A stretch of 43,495 nt of DNA from Limisphaerales bacterium (GCA_044225505.1 JBGAIN010000056.1:1-43495), one strand, 5' to 3'; positions 1,394 through 9,911 are shown, counted from the first letter of the stretch. The notes: generated from the sequence alone by a model not told the origin. A program made the numbers and translations.

Positions 1394-2023
1394 TCATCCG
1401 GCGGGGCTAAGCTGCGCCAGCAGATCTTCCTTGGACAGCACCGCAATCAGAACACAGCCCGCTTCGGACCAGTTTTCGCCATGTTCCGATCCCGCGTCCG
1501 CATGGTGAAAGTCGCCTGCGCGAAGGCAATGATTACCGACATGCAGGTCGCCAGAGAGCATATAGATATCCTCGGCGCGACGATGGGCGTGACCGGGATA
1601 GCGCGCCCCCGCCTCGAGCTTTCCTAAGACGACGGCGTAATTGGTCGTTTCGTCGAATGAGAGCAATTTCACGAAGGCGCCGGGGACCCGCAAAGGCAAC
1701 CACCCCGCCCCGGCCGCGTCATGCAGGAAAGCTAAACCACCGGTGGCGGCGGGGACTAACCGCTGGATCGCCTGAGTTGCGCGGTGCCGCGCCTTGGCCT
1801 CGGCGGCCCGGCGCAGAATGACTTCTCTAAGATGCGCAGGCGGCGCCTTTCTCGGCAAGGACTCTGCCAGGCCGTCCGCAACCTGTGAAAACGCACTGGT
1901 TTCCGCACGCACTTCCGCGTCCTGCGCGAGGAGCGCGTCAAATGCGCGGAGATCCTCGCCATCCAGGGCACCCAACGCATGGAGGGGAGCCAGGTTTTTG
2001 AGTTGCGTTCGGTTCTTTTTCAC
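1394..2023 (-). CDS. Anti-sigma factor with C-terminal ChrR-like cupin domain
   Basis: N-terminal anti-sigma helix LAPLHALGALDGEDLRAFDALL; cupin motif YPGHAHRRAEDIYMLSGDL...AGDFHHADAGSEH; directly downstream of an ECF sigma gene. Confidence 0.8.
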   Translation of the reverse strand: MKKNRTQLKNLAPLHALGALDGEDLRAFDALLAQDAEVRAETSAFSQVADGLAESLPRKAPPAHLREVILRRAAEAKARHRATQAIQRLVPAATGGLAFLHDAAGAGWLPLRVPGAFVKLLSFDETTNYAVVLGKLEAGARYPGHAHRRAEDIYMLSGDLHVGNHCLRAGDFHHADAGSEHGENWSEAGCVLIAVLSKEDLLAQLSPAG

Positions 2024-2066
2024 AAATCGGCAAAGCCGTTCGATTCACTGCTGCTGCCCGACAAAA

Positions 2067-2660
2067 TCACAATTGTTGTCCCAGTTCGTTTCTAAGTTTT
2101 AGCATGCCCCGGCGGATTCGCGCCTTGACCGTGCCGAGGGGCTCGTTGAGGACGGTCGCAATTTCGGTTTGCGTGAGTCCATCGAAAAACGCCAGCTCAA
2201 TGGCTCGGCGTTGATCCACCGGCAAGGCATTTAATGCGCCACGCAATAACTCGCCCCGTTCCGTCGCTCGGACGAGCTCGTGAGCCGGCGCGGCGGCGCT
2301 GGGATAGTCTTCCACAGCGTCGGTTTCAGTTTCTTCAACCAAGCGGGCACGGCGTCGCTGCGTTGCTCTCAGCCGATCAATGGCTTTATTTCGAGTCAAC
2401 GTCAGTGCCCAACTGAGCGGACGCCCTTGCGCCGGATCGAACGCGGCGGCTTTGTCCCAAACGAGCAAAAAGACTTCCTGTAAGACATCCTCGGCCTCTT
2501 TGGTATCCTGTAATATTCGGCAGGCCAGGCCAAACAGGGTGGAAGCGTGACGATCGTACCACTCGGCCAAGGCCGCTTGCTCTCCATCAGCGATTCGACC
2601 TAACAGGTCGAGGTCTGAAGGAGACGAACTCTCGCCCACACTTTCAACTCGGTGCGACAT
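2067..2660 (-). CDS. ECF RNA polymerase sigma factor (SigK/RpoE-like)
   Basis: Region 2 AEDVLQEVFLLVW...WALTLTRNKAIDRLR; region 4 LAFFDGLTQTEIATVLNEPLGTVKARIRRGM. Start placed at ATG 2660; alternatives exist up to 2723. Confidence 0.93.
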   Translation of the reverse strand: MSHRVESVGESSSPSDLDLLGRIADGEQAALAEWYDRHASTLFGLACRILQDTKEAEDVLQEVFLLVWDKAAAFDPAQGRPLSWALTLTRNKAIDRLRATQRRRARLVEETETDAVEDYPSAAAPAHELVRATERGELLRGALNALPVDQRRAIELAFFDGLTQTEIATVLNEPLGTVKARIRRGMLKLRNELGQQL

Positions 2661-2775
2661 CAGCACGGGAATACGCGCGGCTCTATGAGCCATTACGGCA
2701 ACCTGCCGTCGATGGAAAGTCATAGCTCAAACTGTCCAGGTTCACAAGCCTTCATCGTGCCCAGTCTAGGATAGC

Positions 2776-2801
2776 TACGCTCGCCGTTGCCGAACGGATG
2801 C
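2776..2801 (-). promoter_or_regulatory. Putative ECF-sigma promoter for the sigma/anti-sigma genes (GCATCC-N16-CGTA)
   Basis: Minus strand reads GCATCC GTTCGGCAACGGCGAG CGTA; mirror copy of the plus-strand motif at 2861. Confidence 0.65.
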
Positions 2802-2860
2802 ATCCCCCGAGAGTTCGCGATGGGCTGGAGCGCTTAACAAAAAAGATTCGCCCGGCAGAT

Positions 2861-2887
2861 GCATCCGTTCCGCCTTTGCGTTCGTTA
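2861..2887 (+). promoter_or_regulatory. Putative ECF-sigma promoter for the DUF4331 cluster (GCATCC-N16-CGTTA)
   Basis: GCATCC GTTCCGCCTTTGCGTT CGTTA, ending about 50 nt upstream of ATG 2940. Confidence 0.65.
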
Positions 2888-2939
2888 TTTCGGTGTAAGC
2901 GAGAGTTCCAAGAAAAACCAAAACCAAAGGATCATTCTC

Positions 2940-4553
2940 ATGAGGATCAAGCAACGTGTGCTCACCCTGGCTGCGACAGGCCTGTTGGCAGCCGGAAACG
3001 GCTTCGCCTCCAGCCATCGCGAAGCCCCATTCATCACGGCGCTGCCGAAACTGGACGGGGCTGACTTCTATATGTTCAACAGCTACGAACCTGGGCGTTC
3101 GAACTTCGTCACGGTCGTGGCCGATTACGTGCCTCTGCAAGATGCGTACGGCGGCCCCAACTATTTTATGATGGAGACCAACGGCGTCTACGAAATCCAC
3201 ATCGATAATTCCGGCGATGCCCAGGAAGATTTGACATTCCAGTTTCAGTTCTCGCGAAACCCGCGTGGTGTTGCCTTGCCCATCGGGCCTGCGGGTAATC
3301 AGAAAACCAACGAAATCCCATTGATCATCGCCGGGCAACTCTCGGCCACGAATAATTCTGCGCTAAATGTTTTGGAGAACTACACCGTCAAACTCATCCG
3401 CGGTAATCGCCGCACCGGCACGATCGCTGATGTTACCAACGCCGCGGATGGTGGAACCGTCTTTACCAAGCCGGTGGATAACATCGGCAACAAGACCCTT
3501 CCGGACTACGACGCCTATGCTAACTCCTATATCTACTCAATCAACATTCCCGGATGCTCTACTCCTGGCAAACTGTTCGTCGGGCAGCGCAAGGATCCAT
3601 TTGCCGTCAATTTGGGCGAGATCTTCGACCTCATCAACTTGAGCAACCCGCTCGGGCCGGTGGATGGCACCAAGGACACGTTGAACGATAAGAATATTAC
3701 AGCGCTCGTCCTGGAACTGCCGAAAGAGTGCCTGGTCAACGGCACGAATTCCGTCATCGCGGCATGGACCACCGCGAGCCGATACGAAGGGACTAACCTG
3801 GTGCAAGTGTCGCGCCTTGGACAACCGTTGGTCAACGAAGTCGTTATTGGACTCAAGGATAAAGATAAGTTCAATGCGAGTGAACCCAAGGATGACGGAC
3901 AGTTCGCCGATTACGTGACCCACCCCACTCTGCCGGCGTTAATCGAGCTCTTGTTCGGAAGCGCTGGCGTCCGTGCCCCGAACGTTTTTCCTCGAACCGA
4001 CCTGGTGACCGTTTTCCTGACAGGAATACCTAACCTGAACATGACTACCGCCGTCGGCGAAATGTTACGCCTGAACACGAGCACCCCGTCGATTCCTGCA
4101 GACCTGCAGAATAACCTGGGTGTCATCGGTGGAGATACTGCCGGATTTCCGAACGGCCGCCGACCTGGCGATGATGTCGTCGACATCGCGCTCCGCGTCG
4201 TCATGGGCAAGCTGCTGACGGAAACAGAAGCGCCGTCCGGCCAACTCCCGTTCACGGACGGCGCTTTCTTAAGCGCCACCACCTTCAAGTCGACCTTTCC
4301 ATACTTGAATTCGCCAATTCCAGGCTCGCCGAACGACCCGTCCATCACCATCACGCTGCAGACCAGCGCGAACGTGCAGGGTCCTTATCGTAATACTCCG
4401 GTGACGTATGAAAGCGCCAACCGGGAACTTTCCGCTCCCAAAGGCGCTAACGACACGTCCTTCTACCGGTTGAAAGCGGACCGCGCTGGGGTGCAATTGG
4501 GGCAACCCGCCGTCCGCGGGGAGCGCGTGGCCATCGGTTTAGGAACGCGCTAG
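2940..4553 (+). CDS. Secreted DUF4331-domain protein with C-terminal FYRL module
   Basis: Signal peptide then SSHREAP; GQRKDPF, QVSRLGQPLVNEVVI and GFPNGRRPGDDVVDIALR motifs characteristic of DUF4331; AAGGA upstream of ATG 2940. Confidence 0.88.
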   Translation: MRIKQRVLTLAATGLLAAGNGFASSHREAPFITALPKLDGADFYMFNSYEPGRSNFVTVVADYVPLQDAYGGPNYFMMETNGVYEIHIDNSGDAQEDLTFQFQFSRNPRGVALPIGPAGNQKTNEIPLIIAGQLSATNNSALNVLENYTVKLIRGNRRTGTIADVTNAADGGTVFTKPVDNIGNKTLPDYDAYANSYIYSINIPGCSTPGKLFVGQRKDPFAVNLGEIFDLINLSNPLGPVDGTKDTLNDKNITALVLELPKECLVNGTNSVIAAWTTASRYEGTNLVQVSRLGQPLVNEVVIGLKDKDKFNASEPKDDGQFADYVTHPTLPALIELLFGSAGVRAPNVFPRTDLVTVFLTGIPNLNMTTAVGEMLRLNTSTPSIPADLQNNLGVIGGDTAGFPNGRRPGDDVVDIALRVVMGKLLTETEAPSGQLPFTDGAFLSATTFKSTFPYLNSPIPGSPNDPSITITLQTSANVQGPYRNTPVTYESANRELSAPKGANDTSFYRLKADRAGVQLGQPAVRGERVAIGLGTR

Positions 4554-4648
4554 GCGCGACGGATGCACGCAAGAGCGTTCCAGGAGCAGGGCGGGTCGAA
4601 GGGGAGTCCGCACGGGTCGACCCGCTCTCTCCACCTCTCACGAAGATT

Positions 4649-4672
4649 CTCTAGTCCAACCTCTAGTCCAAC
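4649..4672. repeat. 12-bp tandem duplication (CTCTAGTCCAAC x2)
   Basis: Directly visible in the intergenic region. Confidence 0.8.
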
Positions 4673-4741
4673 CTTGATCTATGAACGCCATCGCGCCGAC
4701 GCTGCCGAGATCAGCGCGAGTTCCAATCACTTTTTCTGCAG

Positions 4742-5953
4742 ATGAATGCCTTTCGATTCCCATTACAGTCGGACAAATTCAGGTTGGTTGTTGGCATCGT
4801 CTTAACCGTAGCCGCCGTCCACGCCGAACCGTTCGTTCCGACCAACGGCCTGCAAGTGATCGAGCGCCTCGCCAACAGAAGGTCTCAACTCTCCGGTCAA
4901 GCCCCCCATCGCTGGGCCGATCGCTCCCTCGCCGATCGCACCAACGTCGTTCTCGCAGCCCAAACGGCCAAAGCCTACATTGAGCGGAGTCGGGTGGAAG
5001 CGGACCCTCGTCTTTTGGGACGCGCGCAAGCAGCGCTCGCTCCCTGGTGGACAGCCTCTGACGCCCCGGCCGATCTGATCGTCCTGCGCGCGACGATCAA
5101 GCAGAGTCAGCACGAATTCAACGAGGCTCTCGCAGACTTGGACATCGCGGTTCGGTCTGCGCCGGAGAACGCTCAGGCGTGGCTCACTCAAGCCACCGTG
5201 CAAACGGTGCTTGGGCGCTATACCGAAGCCCGCCGCAGTTGCCTTCGATTGGCCCGTCTCGCCCCAGACCTCGTCGCCACCACCGTTGCGGCCAATCTCG
5301 CCGCGGTAACAGGTTCCGCTCACTCGGCGTGCGAGTCTCTGCGTCGCGTGCTCGACCGGTCGAATGGTGCCAGCTCAGCCGAACGGGTCTGGGCTTGGAC
5401 GGTGCTCGGCGAGACCGAGGGGCGCCTTGGACAGTATGATCAGTCAGAGGCGAGCTTTCGTCGGGCACTGGCGCTCGACAGCCAAGACGTTTATGTGCTC
5501 AGCGCGCTCGCGGATCTTCTACTCGAACGGCAACGTCCGCGGGAAGCGATCGAGCTATTGAAAGACAGGACCGACGTGGACGCTCTCCTGCTTCGGCTTG
5601 CACTCTCGGAAGCACAGGCCAATCCGCAATCTCCGACCGTGACTTCGTACGTCAATCGACTTCGAGAACGATTTGAGGCAAATGCGCTTCGGGGCAATCG
5701 AGTCCACCAACGAGAAGAAGCCCGGTTCCGGCTGACCTTGCTGGGAGAACCGGAGAAAGCTCTGCAGCTCGCCCAGGAGAATTGGGAGGTGCAGCGCGAA
5801 CCGGCCGATGTTCGAATTCTGCTTGAGACAGCCCTCGCTGCAAACGCCCAAGCGTCCGCGCAACCCGCTCTCGAGTTTGCCAAGACGAATCATCTCGAGG
5901 ACGTGACGGTGGCTCGTCTCACAGCAAAACTCCTTGAGAAGGCCCGATTATGA
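4742..5953 (+). CDS. Exported tetratricopeptide-repeat protein
   Basis: Signal-like N-terminus (..LTVAAVHA|EP); Ala/Leu-rich helical repeats (PENAQAWLTQATVQTVLGRYTEA); DPRLLGRAQAALAPWW; ALQLAQENWEVQREPAD; ATGA overlap with the next gene. Confidence 0.8.
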   Translation: MNAFRFPLQSDKFRLVVGIVLTVAAVHAEPFVPTNGLQVIERLANRRSQLSGQAPHRWADRSLADRTNVVLAAQTAKAYIERSRVEADPRLLGRAQAALAPWWTASDAPADLIVLRATIKQSQHEFNEALADLDIAVRSAPENAQAWLTQATVQTVLGRYTEARRSCLRLARLAPDLVATTVAANLAAVTGSAHSACESLRRVLDRSNGASSAERVWAWTVLGETEGRLGQYDQSEASFRRALALDSQDVYVLSALADLLLERQRPREAIELLKDRTDVDALLLRLALSEAQANPQSPTVTSYVNRLRERFEANALRGNRVHQREEARFRLTLLGEPEKALQLAQENWEVQREPADVRILLETALAANAQASAQPALEFAKTNHLEDVTVARLTAKLLEKARL

Positions 5954-7116
5954 ATGACCTCAAGCGCTGCCAACACTATTGGAAAAGAGTTTGCCGACTG
6001 GCAGTCCTGGCGTTCTCGGTCATTTTTCCATTCGACCGGGCGTGGGCTCACAAGCCGAGCGACTCATACCTCACGCTGGACCTGAAAGAATCTCCTGCCC
6101 GTTTGGAATGGCACCTGGCTCTCCGTGACCTCGAGGACGTGATCGGTTTGGATAAAGATGGGGACGGAACTATCACCTGGAACGAACTCCACGATGCTGA
6201 ATCCATGCTTGTGGCCTACGCTCAAGCGCATTTGTCGGTGCGTGACGATCGGGCCAATCGAGCACTCCACTTCACTCAACTTCTGGTGGATCGCCATTCG
6301 GATGGCGCCTACGCAGTGCTCCGCTTCGAATGTCCAGGAAAAGAATTCTCCACCACGTTGCACCTCAACTACACGGCCTTCTTTGACGTAGACCCAACAC
6401 ATCGGGGACTGCTGCGAATGGAAACGGCGCTTGGGACGCGCCTGGCCATCTTCGCCCCTGGAGCAAACGCGCAAACTTTCAGTATCTCCACACCGCCAAC
6501 CCCGCGATGGCAAGCGTTCCTGAAGGAAGGGATGTGGCACATCTGGACCGGATACGATCATCTTCTGTTCTTATTGGTCCTGTTGTTGCCCGGCGCGCTA
6601 ACCTGGCGGTGGAGTGAAGGGTGGCAACCGCAACCCCAGACGCGTTCGATTGTTTCAGAGGTGCTTCGGACGGTAACGGCGTTTACGGCGGCGCATTCCG
6701 TCACTTTGACTCTCGCTGCCCTCGACTGGGTTCGCCCTCCCTCTCGAGTTGTTGAAAGTTTGATCGCCGCTTCGATCATTGTGGCTGCAATCAACAACCT
6801 CAGGCCCAGCCTCTCCACGCGGGCCTGGGCCATTGCTTTCGCCTTTGGACTTATCCATGGCTTTGGCTTCGCCAACGCACTGGCCGATCTTGGCTTGCAC
6901 GGGACAGGCCTAGCCCCTGCTCTGCTCGGATTCAACTTAGGCGTCGAGACGGGTCAATTGGCCGTGGTAGGTTTTCTCTTGCCACTGTTTCTGACCCTGC
7001 GACACAAATCATTTTATCGTCGGCAGTTGATGCCGATCGGATCCTTGGCCATTGCCGCGCTAGCGACGACCTGGCTGCTGCAACGCGCCTTGGATATTCG
7101 CGTGCTGCCATTCTAA
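5950..7116 (+). CDS. HupE/UreJ family membrane protein with N-terminal extracytoplasmic domain
   Basis: GMWHIWTGYDHLLFL, TAFTAAHSVTL, FGLIHGFGFA and GFNLGVETGQL transmembrane motifs; AWA|HKPS signal end; EF-hand-like DKDGDGTITWNE. Confidence 0.88.
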   Translation: MNDLKRCQHYWKRVCRLAVLAFSVIFPFDRAWAHKPSDSYLTLDLKESPARLEWHLALRDLEDVIGLDKDGDGTITWNELHDAESMLVAYAQAHLSVRDDRANRALHFTQLLVDRHSDGAYAVLRFECPGKEFSTTLHLNYTAFFDVDPTHRGLLRMETALGTRLAIFAPGANAQTFSISTPPTPRWQAFLKEGMWHIWTGYDHLLFLLVLLLPGALTWRWSEGWQPQPQTRSIVSEVLRTVTAFTAAHSVTLTLAALDWVRPPSRVVESLIAASIIVAAINNLRPSLSTRAWAIAFAFGLIHGFGFANALADLGLHGTGLAPALLGFNLGVETGQLAVVGFLLPLFLTLRHKSFYRRQLMPIGSLAIAALATTWLLQRALDIRVLPF

Positions 7117-7194
7117 AGGCCGCTATTTGAACCCCGTTCGGATTGCCGCCGATTGTGCTTGCCGACGTTCCAACGGGCTTTGTATCAACTGCAC

Positions 7195-8844
7195 GTGATC
7201 AAGTCCGTTTTCCTTTGTCTTAGCGCCACCTTACTTCAAAGCGCATGGCTGCTCGCGCAAAACAGCCTGCCTACCCCGCAGACCCTGATGGTGCCCATGC
7301 GCGATGGGGTCCATCTGGCCACAGACCTTTACCTCCCTGCGGGAACACCTCCGTTTCCGGTGGTATTGATGCGGACACCCTACAACAAAGCCAATGCTGG
7401 AGGAGCTGGCCCCAACACCTCTAAGCTCGGTTACGCAGTCGTCATCCAGGACACCCGAGGCCGATTTGCCTCGGAAGGGGAGAATTTGCCTTTCCATATG
7501 GAGGACAAAGACGGCTTCGACACGGTCGCATGGATTCTGAAACAAGGCTGGTGTAATGGAAAAGTTGGCACGTACGGCGGGTCCGCGCTTGGTATCGCTC
7601 AGCTGCAACTTGCGGGCACCGGCATCGAGGGGCTTGTTTGCCAGCACATTACGGTCGGTGCTCCAAGCTTGTTCCATGATGTCGTCTACACGGGAGGTGC
7701 GTTCCGCAAATCGCTCGTGGAAGACTGGCTAAAGGCCAGCAAGTTTAGCCCGCGCGCCCTCGAGCTGTGGTCGGGCCACGACGGGTATGATCGTTATTGG
7801 ATGGAGCGCGACGCAACGAAGCGCTACGCCAAAGCGAATGTCCCGGCACTGCATATCGGCGGCTATTACGACATTTTTGCGCAAGCGACGATTGACGCGT
7901 ATTTGGGACTGCAAACGCGAGGAGCTCCTGGCGCTCGAGGCACTCAGAAGCTCCTCATGGGCCCCTGGACACACGCCGTCTTAACCGAGAAGGTCGGTGA
8001 CTTGGTTTTTCCCAATGCCAAAGAACCGCCAAATAAGGTCCACGACGCCGCCCGCTGGTGGGAGCGTTACCTCAAAGGCGTTATGAACGGCGTCGATTCA
8101 CTTCCTGCGGTTACCTATTACGTCATGGGCGACGTGAGCGATCCACAAGCCCCTGGAAACGTTTGGCGCACCTCAGACCGTTGGCCACCCGTTCCCACCG
8201 ACTCAGTCCGATGGTACTTGCAGGATGACCAGACTCTGACGCCCTCACGCCCGCACGGCAGTGGTTCGATCACCTATTTGTACGATCCGAAAAAACCGGT
8301 TCCAACGGTCGGCGGATATCAGCTCACGATCCCAGCGGGGCCCAAAGATCAACGCTCCATCGAAGACCGTCCGGACGTCATTGTTTTCTCAAGCGCGCCT
8401 CTGAGCGAGCCGATCGAGGTGACCGGGCAGGTCAACGCCAAGCTTTATATCGCTAGCGACGCCCCAGATACGGACTTCGTCGTCAGACTGTGCGACGTGT
8501 ACCCGGACGGACGATCCTTTAACGTCTGTGAAGGAGTTATCCGGGCGAGGTATCGCCATGACTTCGCTCACGAGGATTTCCTAAAACCCGGACGCATCTA
8601 TCCGCTCGAAGTAGCGCTCTGGTCAACCAGCGTGGTTTTTAACCGCGGCCACCGTTTACGGTTGCACATCACATCCAGTAGTTCGCCAGGCTACGACCCT
8701 AACCCAAATACAGGGGAACCCCTGCGAATGAGCGACCGAACCGTGATCGCCCAAAATACGGTCTATGTGTCCCGACGTTGCCCTTCCTACCTGGAATTGC
8801 CGGTAGCAGACTCCAGGACGGTTTCCAGCTCAGGCAAACCGTGA
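7195..8844 (+). CDS. CocE/NonD family (S15-like) serine hydrolase, probably exported
   Basis: MRDGVHLATDLYLP, RTPY, QDTRGRFASEG, nucleophile GGSALG, GGYYD, GPWTH and a C-terminal PepX-like domain. Start uncertain (GTG 7195 vs TTG 7153). Confidence 0.9.
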   Translation: MIKSVFLCLSATLLQSAWLLAQNSLPTPQTLMVPMRDGVHLATDLYLPAGTPPFPVVLMRTPYNKANAGGAGPNTSKLGYAVVIQDTRGRFASEGENLPFHMEDKDGFDTVAWILKQGWCNGKVGTYGGSALGIAQLQLAGTGIEGLVCQHITVGAPSLFHDVVYTGGAFRKSLVEDWLKASKFSPRALELWSGHDGYDRYWMERDATKRYAKANVPALHIGGYYDIFAQATIDAYLGLQTRGAPGARGTQKLLMGPWTHAVLTEKVGDLVFPNAKEPPNKVHDAARWWERYLKGVMNGVDSLPAVTYYVMGDVSDPQAPGNVWRTSDRWPPVPTDSVRWYLQDDQTLTPSRPHGSGSITYLYDPKKPVPTVGGYQLTIPAGPKDQRSIEDRPDVIVFSSAPLSEPIEVTGQVNAKLYIASDAPDTDFVVRLCDVYPDGRSFNVCEGVIRARYRHDFAHEDFLKPGRIYPLEVALWSTSVVFNRGHRLRLHITSSSSPGYDPNPNTGEPLRMSDRTVIAQNTVYVSRRCPSYLELPVADSRTVSSSGKP

Positions 8845-8964
8845 ACTGGAGCCAGAAGCGGGACGTTTCGTGGAGGGCCAGGACCGATGCCAGAAGCCGA
8901 AAGGGGACCGGGTTGGATCGAGAGCAGGACACTTCAATTGTTTTCTAATCCACGCATGCAGCAA

Positions 8965-8992
8965 TTGACATTGAAGCGTCATCAATCATAAT
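8965..8992 (+). promoter_or_regulatory. Sigma70-type promoter, likely giving a leaderless mRNA for the peroxidase
   Basis: TTGACA-N16-CATAAT, then 6 nt to ATG 8999. Confidence 0.6.
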
Positions 8993-8998
8993 TCGCCC

Positions 8999-9550
8999 AT
9001 GAAATTGATCGCTTTTCTGGTATTGGCGTCCTGCTGTCTGCCGCTGATGGCAACTGCCGCGACTCCGTCTCTGTACGATGTACCGCTCAAGGACATCGAC
9101 GGAAAAGACACTTCTTTGAAAGCCTATAAAGGCCAAGTGCTTTTGATTGTCAATGTGGCGTCCAAGTGCGGCTATACCCCGCAGTACAAGGGACTGGAAG
9201 CTCTGCATCAGAAGTATAAGGATAAGGGATTTCAAGTGCTCGGATTTCCCTGCAACGATTTCGGGGCGCAGGAGCCTGGCTCGAATGCAGAGATTAAGAC
9301 CTTTTGCACTTCGCAATACGCCGTCACCTTCCCGATGTTTGACAAACTCCACGTCAAAGGTGCGGAGCAACATCCCCTCTACACCGCACTCACGGGCAAA
9401 GATTCTCAGTATCCCGGCGATGTGAAATGGAATTTCGGCAAGTTTCTCATCGGCCGTGATGGAAAACTGTTTCAGCGGTTCGACTCGAAAGTGACGCCTG
9501 ACTCTGCTGAACTGACTCATGCGGTAGAAGCCGCGCTCGCCGCCAAGTAA
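8999..9550 (+). CDS. Glutathione peroxidase family protein (Cys-type) with signal peptide
   Basis: NVASKCGYT, LGFPCNDFGAQEPG, KWNFGKFL. Confidence 0.95.
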   Translation: MKLIAFLVLASCCLPLMATAATPSLYDVPLKDIDGKDTSLKAYKGQVLLIVNVASKCGYTPQYKGLEALHQKYKDKGFQVLGFPCNDFGAQEPGSNAEIKTFCTSQYAVTFPMFDKLHVKGAEQHPLYTALTGKDSQYPGDVKWNFGKFLIGRDGKLFQRFDSKVTPDSAELTHAVEAALAAK

Positions 9551-9608
9551 GTCCATCCCACCTAAAGGCGAAAGCCAGGGGTGTTAATGCGGGCCAACTC
9601 ACAATTTT

Positions 9609-9911
9609 ATGGCAAAAGTTAAGCACATCGCTCTTTTGAAGTTCAAAGACGGAACGAGTGAAGACCAGATCCAGGGCATCTTCGACAACATTCTCGACAT
9701 TACCGAGACCATTCCTGGCATCGAAGACTACGTCTCGGGTCCCTATGCAAGTCCGGAAGGATTGAATCAAGGCTACACGCATGGCTTGATCATGACGTTC
9801 GCTGACGCGGCCTCGAGGGACGGTTACCTGGCCCATCCGGACCATGAGCGGGTCAAGTCGGCTTTTCTCCCGAATATTGAATCCCTCTTGGCGTTTGACT
9901 TTGAGGTTTAA
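9609..9911 (+). CDS. Dabb / stress-responsive A/B barrel protein
   Basis: VKHIALLKFK...IPGI...GYTHGLIMTF...YLAHPDH...AFDFE. Confidence 0.9.
   Translation: MAKVKHIALLKFKDGTSEDQIQGIFDNILDITETIPGIEDYVSGPYASPEGLNQGYTHGLIMTFADAASRDGYLAHPDHERVKSAFLPNIESLLAFDFEV

Follow-up and report, generated by a model that had tools for sequence, protein, structure and literature searches.

A conserved DUF4331–TPR–anglerase-permease module with a predicted ECF sigma regulon is a candidate system for extracytoplasmic metal handling

Results

The DUF4331 module and its conservation

We analysed a 43,495-nucleotide stretch of DNA from a Limisphaerales bacterium (GCA_044225505.1, JBGAIN010000056.1:1-43495), referred to here as the window. 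Near its start, genes for a sigma factor of the extracytoplasmic function (ECF) type and a cupin anti-sigma factor lie divergent from three co-directional genes that encode a DUF4331 protein, an exported tetratricopeptide repeat (TPR) protein and a HupE/UreJ-2 permease (Table 1). An initial annotation, made from the sequence alone, had proposed these five genes as an undescribed metal-handling system. The coordinates and the sequence agree with the arrangement it gave, and direct reading of the sequence places the ATGA shared by the TPR and permease genes at 5950-5953. The labels of all five genes agree with Pfam and NCBIfam profiles. DUF4331 and PF13795, the family of the permease, each occur once in the genome (9.0 Mb, 95% complete), whose named close relatives are Verrucomicrobiota.

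To survey the gene neighbourhood, we used the best 80 among the 562 loci confirmed in GTDB, which share 51-71% identity and are therefore biased to close relatives. Co-occurrence was counted in the 62 loci that have 3.5 kb or more of downstream sequence, and sigma and anti-sigma genes in the 57 with both flanks. The TPR gene was found in 47/62 loci, HupE/UreJ-2 in 40/62 and both in 39/62, so that the co-occurrence suggested by the single initial locus is conserved. A TonB receptor of one family was present in 20/62 loci and DUF4198 in 10/62, and 57/62 carried at least one of the anglerase-permease, the receptor and DUF4198. A sigma gene was found in 31 of the 57 two-flank loci, three of which (L064, L066, L069) have a sigma that looks to be of an unrelated type with five Cys; an RskA-type membrane anti-sigma was present in 17 and a cupin anti-sigma in 11. 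The complete five-gene set, as in the window, occurred in six. The DUF4331 family comprises 4,501 clusters at 50% identity (E up to 0.001), and its distribution in a class-wide sample is patchy (7/151 genomes).

Table 1. Features of the module, its predicted regulon and the adjoining upstream gene. Coordinates are those of the window unless a contig is named.
Feature	Position	Strand	Basis or remarks
Conserved open reading frame (ORF), 453+ residues, open to contig start	3..1364	+	N-terminal RRSRRF motif
Cupin anti-sigma	1394..2023	-	Cupin_7 E 2.9e-14; PF12973 53.2 bits (cut-off 27)
ECF sigma factor	2067..2723	-	Putatively SigK-like (ECF19/18 type)
Predicted autoregulatory promoter GCATCC-N16-CGTA	2776..2801	-	Position weight matrix (PWM) 18.5 bits
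Predicted operon promoter GCATCC-N16-CGTT of DUF4331-TPR-HupE	2861..2886	+	PWM 20.7 bits
DUF4331	2940..4553	+	E 1.1e-139; signal peptide encoded at 2940-3008; mature protein begins SSHREAP (3009)
DUF4331 C-terminal tail, putative surface-sorting domain	4341..4550	+	Mature residues 445-514; hhalign 94.7%
Exported TPR protein	4742..5953	+	Pfam/NCBIfam scan, complex model
HupE_UreJ_2 anglerase-permease	5950..7116	+	E 1.5e-48
Ang-1-fold domain of permease with mature His1 and EF-hand-like loop	6049..6504	+	Fold comparison, alignments
ZnuA/ABC-3, nikR, small His-containing ORF, TonB receptor, TonB, ExbB, ExbD, coiled-coil ORF, two PF04955 HupE/UreJ-like genes	C115:17515-27528 (L083 3516-13529)		
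Ferritin_2 gene (twin-arginine-like leader) and beta-propeller-like gene	C222:68382 onward (L084 6472-9049)		Promoter match

DUF4331 has a conserved mature N-terminus and a putative sorting tail

The mature N-terminus Ser-Ser-His (SSH), first noticed in the window protein, was matched in 77 of 81 DUF4331 ORFs of the related loci, 74 of them after Ala. The four misses were two truncated ORFs, one SSHRES and one unparsed sequence. Among 150 distant DUF4331 representatives, 103 retained an X-X-H start. An amino-terminal Cu(II)- and Ni(II)-binding (ATCUN) site consists of a free NH2-X-X-His in which neither of the first two residues is Pro, and it holds the metal in square-planar 4N coordination. 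The mature SSH of DUF4331 has this sequence pattern and may form an ATCUN-type Ni(II)/Cu(II) site. Conservation extends well beyond this end: of 442 positions, 89 reach a conservation of 90% or more across 148 sequences, and most are distant from the N-terminus. The core is predicted to be a beta-sandwich with large conserved insertions and weakly resembles CBM74/CBM9.

The C-terminal tail of DUF4331 is lineage-specific and homologous to a domain of ~45 residues that ends many exported proteins in this genome. The tail motif ends 64 long ORFs by the strict pattern (0.3 expected) and ~208 genome-wide by hidden Markov model, and the window copy has no Pfam or NCBIfam match. The domain is a candidate Verrucomicrobiota sorting signal. 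In Adhaeribacter, DUF4331 carries a type IX secretion system (T9SS) tail. In 54 of the 77 loci that extend far enough, and in three more by a relaxed pattern, DUF4331 is directly followed by a gene for a small acidic lipoprotein of ~70-100 residues with repeated E-P motifs, for which the two examples tested had no Pfam match. This lipoprotein is not encoded at 4553-4742 in the window, and it is likewise absent from all seven loci whose DUF4331 has a tail of at least 74 residues, as in the window; these seven are probably kin. In 4 of the 80 loci, DUF692/MNIO genes (MbnB/TglH/ChrH) are found no more than a few kb from DUF4331 (L064, L066, L069, L082).

The TPR protein is predicted to bind the DUF4331 N-terminal peptide

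The complex model of DUF4331 with the TPR protein gave an ipSAE of 0.75, compared to 0.00 for the best control. In calibration, 116 of 157 solved complexes attained the mark for this score, as did 2 of 215 mismatched pairs; with our own alignments the calibration is only roughly valid. Runs agreed in at least 76% of contacts, with a partner pLDDT of at least 86. In the model, DUF4331 residues 1-12, 15, 277-283 and 307-318 lie in the TPR groove, where they meet the invariant TPR residues Q93, H96, W189, H294, R296, E297, Q323 and E325 (mature numbering). Eight of the 14 invariant TPR residues thus belong to the interface, which comprises 58 of 375 residues (hypergeometric p 3e-4), although this value is not independent of the model, since the same alignment was fed to it. 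The model supports the prediction that the TPR groove binds the N-terminal peptide SSHREAP, and it fits the adaptor role first suggested for the TPR protein. General likeness between TPR-peptide complexes may inflate the score.

The TPR-peptide prediction, together with the surface-sorting tail, suggests that DUF4331 fits a client better than the extracytoplasmic metal-capture protein of the initial annotation, which would act in the periplasm. We therefore lean, with a little less than even confidence, towards DUF4331 as an exported ATCUN-type Ni/Cu protein that is loaded by the TPR protein and the permease. A reading without metal would make DUF4331 a CBM74/CBM9-type surface glycan binder and the TPR protein a secretion chaperone for which SSHREAP serves as docking tag, the metal genes being merely co-regulated. 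The DUF4198 loci bear on this. None of the ten has a TPR gene at the locus, and the TPR family was found in two of the ten genomes, which are metagenome-assembled and of unstated completeness. SSH is retained in the eight others and where DUF4198 replaces the TPR protein, and is therefore not merely a docking tag. Moreover, every replacement of the TPR/permease slot has an N-terminal His or a link to nickel. We consider the reading without metal very unlikely.

The TPR proteins of eight Acinetobacter loci (L061, L062, L064, L066, L067, L069, L074, L076) start A|HPKH, giving a predicted mature His-Pro-Lys-His. HupE/UreJ-2 is missing from these eight, in which the receptor and a TonB-like gene are present.

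The permease carries an N-terminal anglerase domain

The permease has a predicted cleavage site AWA|HKPS, placed by its A-x-A motif. The His1 that follows this motif is retained in 43 of 45 relatives and is invariant in 42 aligned domains. The N-terminal domain has the immunoglobulin-like beta-sandwich of the Ang-1 fold, and its His1 is a predicted Cu/Ni site. In the membrane part, H197, D203, H204, H249, E269, H303 and E333 are kept in 44-45 of the 45 relatives; the first three form the H-x5-DH of the first helix and are present in all 45. This motif is important in canonical HupE/UreJ nickel permeases. The permease scores 164.9 bits with PF13795 (cut-off 24.5) and 20.2 bits with the canonical HupE/UreJ family PF04955, below its cut-off of 23; only the H-x5-DH stretch aligns it with the genome's PF04955 protein (E 0.09). 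The mature His1 and transmembrane His motifs of the initial annotation are conserved in the relatives. Its EF-hand-like loop holds in part, with the strict loop pattern in 15-17 of the 45 relatives and a Pfam score of 16.5 bits that falls below the cut-off of 25.4.

Elsewhere, the TPR/permease slot is filled differently. A Streptomyces DUF4331 locus uses a His1-NicO fusion, and DUF4198, which takes the place of the TPR protein, is reported to bind Ni with a dissociation constant of 18 nM (PMC12537917). The anglerase fold and the Ni-context partners support the metal theme of the first proposal.

Sigma factor, anti-sigma factor and predicted regulon

The best NCBIfam models of the sigma factor are PRK12519 (181 bits, cut-off 222) and SigK PRK09646 (168 bits, cut-off 226), both below cut-off. 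It is the only close copy in the genome, the next paralogue being 33% identical (E 1.6e-14). Its last 75 residues contain no Cys, hence no region-4 Cys pair, and the window pair lacks the combination of two region-4 Cys and a membrane RskA-like anti-sigma that marks ECF18. The anti-sigma is soluble. It consists of an N-terminal anti-sigma domain without the HxxxCxxC zinc motif, the first Cys being no earlier than residue 166, and a ChrR-like cupin that scores 36.6 bits with the ChrR model TIGR02451 (cut-off 124.5). The HAH..E..H signature seen initially corresponds to the cupin ligands H145, H147, E151 and H181, all four of which are kept in 13 of 14 aligned cupin anti-sigmas, the window's included, as read from the alignment. 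Metal sensing by the cupin is possible, but would be lineage-specific at best because control of the RskA type, together with a Cys pair in region 4, occurs more often.

To examine the promoters, we built a PWM without the window sequence. In 49 of 75 relatives, the region upstream of DUF4331 contains the pattern [ACT]ATCC-N16-CGT[AT], compared to at most 6 for other spacers and a mean of 0.4 (maximum 3) in 200 shuffles; it was derived from the same upstream regions in which it was counted. It equals the ECF18 consensus GCATCC/CGTA (PMC13492112, Table 4; PMC7826278, supplement), and in the window it is found in both directions, as first noted. A PWM scan of the genome gave 99 sites above 13 bits. 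The top eight comprise both window sites, C115:20701 (25.2 bits, the best), C222:68382 (21.2 bits) and four others inside ORFs or at their starts. Single matches inside coding regions were rejected as regulon members because the strict pattern occurs 9 times genome-wide, compared to 3-8 times for other spacers. Among related loci, the same site precedes the sigma gene in 11 and is found elsewhere ahead of fasciclin (2), Ferritin_2, DUF3034, DUF4198, a split TPR-HupE operon and the receptor, and ahead of DUF4394 in genome G081. These mixed targets suggest that the regulon blends Ni-context uptake genes with general ECF18/19 envelope genes. In this genome, the computed promoters predict a small regulon of four operons.

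The regulator also suits a stress-defence sink, in which singlet oxygen, peroxide, light or envelope stress would release the sigma, DUF4331, the anglerase and Ferritin_2 would sequester redox-active Cu, Ni and Fe outside the cytoplasm, and the permease would export metal. ChrR cupins are described in the supplement of PMC7826278 as sensors of singlet oxygen or organic peroxide, and the ECF18 members listed there include the light-induced LitS and RpoP (Ni/Co resistance). Ferritin_2 lies behind the promoter here and in L039 and adjoins the sigma gene in G112. The best model of the Streptomyces permease is the Ni/Co efflux protein PRK10019, with a score below cut-off. A co-regulated TonB-energised receptor, an importer, is however ill-suited to detoxification, and we regard the sink as improbable.

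The intergenic region between DUF4331 and the TPR gene contains a GC-rich hairpin at 4588-4628 (-22.8 kcal/mol, without shuffle control) and a 12-nt tandem duplication at 4649-4672. The hairpin may lift DUF4331 mRNA above that of the downstream genes. RNA-library contigs from four runs in two studies cover parts of the sigma gene and DUF4331 and one piece of the TPR gene at low depth; they were not used as evidence, because they do not show strand or level and may derive from DNA.

A co-regulated TonB receptor and the nickel context

The best promoter site in the genome lies after nikR and before the TonB receptor operon (C115:20701). The receptor, which may belong to the Bll6948 family, is 38-49% identical to receptors beside DUF4331 in 22 of 80 loci, 47% identical to one 4.4 kb from hoxN on pHG1, and 45% identical to one directly after nikR in Methylomagnum. 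Among the 12 receptor-bearing genomes of the 151 in the class, a site above 15 bits precedes the receptor in 2/2 with DUF4331 and in 0/10 without (Fisher p 0.015, with kin not independent). Two observations weigh against an obligate link between the receptor and DUF4331: the two genes are mostly found in separate genomes of the class, and nikR is not adjacent to the receptor in G105, G015 and G135. In G105 and G015, genes upstream of the receptor encode exported proteins whose mature forms are predicted to begin with Gln-His-Ile or His1 (L118 2612-4399; L119 1946-2623), and these genes adjoin pilin-like N-methyl genes.

The initial annotation had noted that no hydrogenase or urease gene lies in the window and had left the system without a client. 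The window indeed has none, but the genome encodes several nickel clients elsewhere, with [NiFe]-hydrogenase large-subunit matches on three contigs, urease and three LarA-like genes. A search of the genome for nickel superoxide dismutase (NiSOD) gave no match and was uninformative, as the control matched nowhere.

Scavenging and import, a reading close to the initial annotation, is the main rival to client loading, and the nickel clients in the genome count in its favour. Here, DUF4331 would trap Ni or Cu outside the cytoplasm, the TPR protein would strip the metal from its N-terminus, and the anglerase-permease would import it for hydrogenase, urease or LarA. Such a route is compatible with the same DUF4331-TPR complex model, an import role is proposed in the anglerase paper (PMC12537917), and the co-regulated receptor-TonB-ExbBD-HupE operon beside nikR is an uptake set. 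On the other hand, the core, with 440 residues and 89 highly conserved positions among them, is large for a single metal site. DUF4331 beyond the outer membrane, as suggested by the Adhaeribacter T9SS tail and by the tail here, would meet the periplasmic TPR protein in transit only. In addition, the genome already has two canonical HupE/UreJ genes, and 22/62 loci lack HupE/UreJ-2. We judge import less likely than client loading, though it deserves more weight than the stress sink.

Proposed mechanism

In the best explanation, the locus would be central to a small regulon of the ECF18/19 type whose products assemble an exported metalloprotein. Upon a signal, the cupin anti-sigma would release the sigma, which would transcribe its own operon and the DUF4331-TPR-HupE/UreJ-2 operon and, judging from the computed promoters, the TonB receptor-TonB-ExbBD-HupE/UreJ and Ferritin_2 operons on other contigs. 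DUF4331 would be exported and cleaved to a free NH2-Ser-Ser-His that could bind Ni(II) or Cu(II), nickel being somewhat more likely. The TPR groove, as modelled, would grip the N-terminal peptide on its conserved His, Glu and Gln residues, and the TPR protein may act as a loading chaperone. The metal donor would be the His1 anglerase domain, which would receive its metal either from the outer-membrane receptor or through the permease to which it is fused. Loaded DUF4331 would then reach the cell surface via its sorting tail; in other lineages, surface placement may rely on the small lipoprotein or on a tail of the T9SS or sortase type. As for its function there, an oxidative or ligand-binding role on the CBM9/CBM74-like scaffold is a guess.

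A more specific form of client loading is that DUF4331 is a widespread cell-surface Ni- or Cu-ATCUN metalloenzyme on the CBM9/CBM74-like scaffold, an X-X-His functional analogue of the histidine-brace oxidases, with its own route of metal insertion: the TPR protein would clamp the N-terminal peptide, and the anglerase-permease, DUF4198 or a His1-NicO fusion would supply the metal. We hold this to be a speculative option with rather low odds. If true, the anglerases would gain a client, and extracytoplasmic metallochaperones a new class. The broader client reading, if true, would add a pathway by which exported proteins acquire metal, and possibly a surface Ni/Cu enzyme of a new kind, with a reach across Proteobacteria, Verrucomicrobiota, Planctomycetota, Bacteroidota and Actinomycetota. 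Were scavenging and import true instead, the locus would encode an ECF-controlled system of several proteins for Ni/Cu uptake, likewise undescribed. The locus offers defined targets for distinguishing these: a 12-residue peptide, a TPR pocket, a promoter and a four-operon regulon.

Neighbouring genes

The conserved ORF at the start of the window has no Pfam, NCBIfam or PDB match; its RRSRRF motif is nitroreductase-like. In L006, L008, L009, G105 and G141, homologues lie beside the sigma pair or the module, and in G141 the sigma pair is present and DUF4331 was not found. The family occurs in 3/151 genomes of the class and is a Verrucomicrobiota companion of the sigma/anti-sigma pair. The ORF is a lineage-specific neighbour of the pair and at most a putative member of the module, and its family possibly belongs to the signal pathway. 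Downstream of the operon, on the same strand, genes for a CocE/NonD hydrolase and a glutathione peroxidase occupy 7153-9911; the hydrolase was not found in any of the 80 related loci. A scan of six loci found no Rfam families.

Comparison with known systems

Anglerase-permeases (Ang-1/Ang-2::HupE/UreJ-2) and DUF4198 were described by Franco Cairo et al. 2025 (PMC12537917; PDB 9GCE), with a proposed role but without a known client or regulator. The window Ang-1 domain is 12% identical to RbAng-1a and has an extra EF-hand-like loop. The abstract, introduction and results of that paper mention no DUF4331, TPR partner or ECF control, and PF14224 was not found in the searched part of its supplement.

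On the regulatory side, the system resembles ECF19 (SigK/RskA; s19 with a soluble ChrR-like cupin) and ECF18 (RpoT, LitS, RpoP), as classified by Casas-Pastor et al. 2021 (PMC7826278), in its putatively SigK-like sigma, an anti-sigma at +1, the GCATCC/CGTA promoter, and fasciclin and DUF4394 targets. The cupin anti-sigma matches the ECF19s19 description given there, whereas the sigma, unlike ECF18, lacks the region-4 Cys pair. DUF4331 is named in the supplement as a neighbour of ECF18s13 and ECF214s1, without a function, and no match to HupE was found in the part searched. Like RpoE-ChrR (ECF11), the window has a soluble anti-sigma with an HxH/E/H cupin, but this has no N-terminal zinc motif and scores far below the ChrR cut-off, and the -35 element is GCATCC instead of GTGATC.

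The proposed loading has parallels in established maturation cassettes, such as the NiSOD Ni-hook with SodX and Ni permeases, CopC/CopD and the nos accessory genes. As in these, the metal would be bound at a processed N-terminus, and the client would be accompanied by a permease and a chaperone of its own. The module differs in its X-X-His instead of His1 and in its TPR loading partner, and no sequence or fold link to them was found. The DUF4331 core shows 7% identity and a root-mean-square deviation of 4.4 to CBM74 (Sas6, PDB 7UWU)/CBM9, with no sequence-profile match, and adds a helical subdomain and the SSH start.

In the literature searched, which reached neither subscription journals nor bioRxiv supplements, there was no description of the module or of DUF4331 function and no main-text mention of DUF4331. 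The initial claim of an undescribed system thus stands for the DUF4331-TPR pair and for the module as a whole, but not for the regulator and the permease, which are of known kinds. Compared with these known systems, the module is a real, conserved and undescribed variant of extracytoplasmic metal handling.

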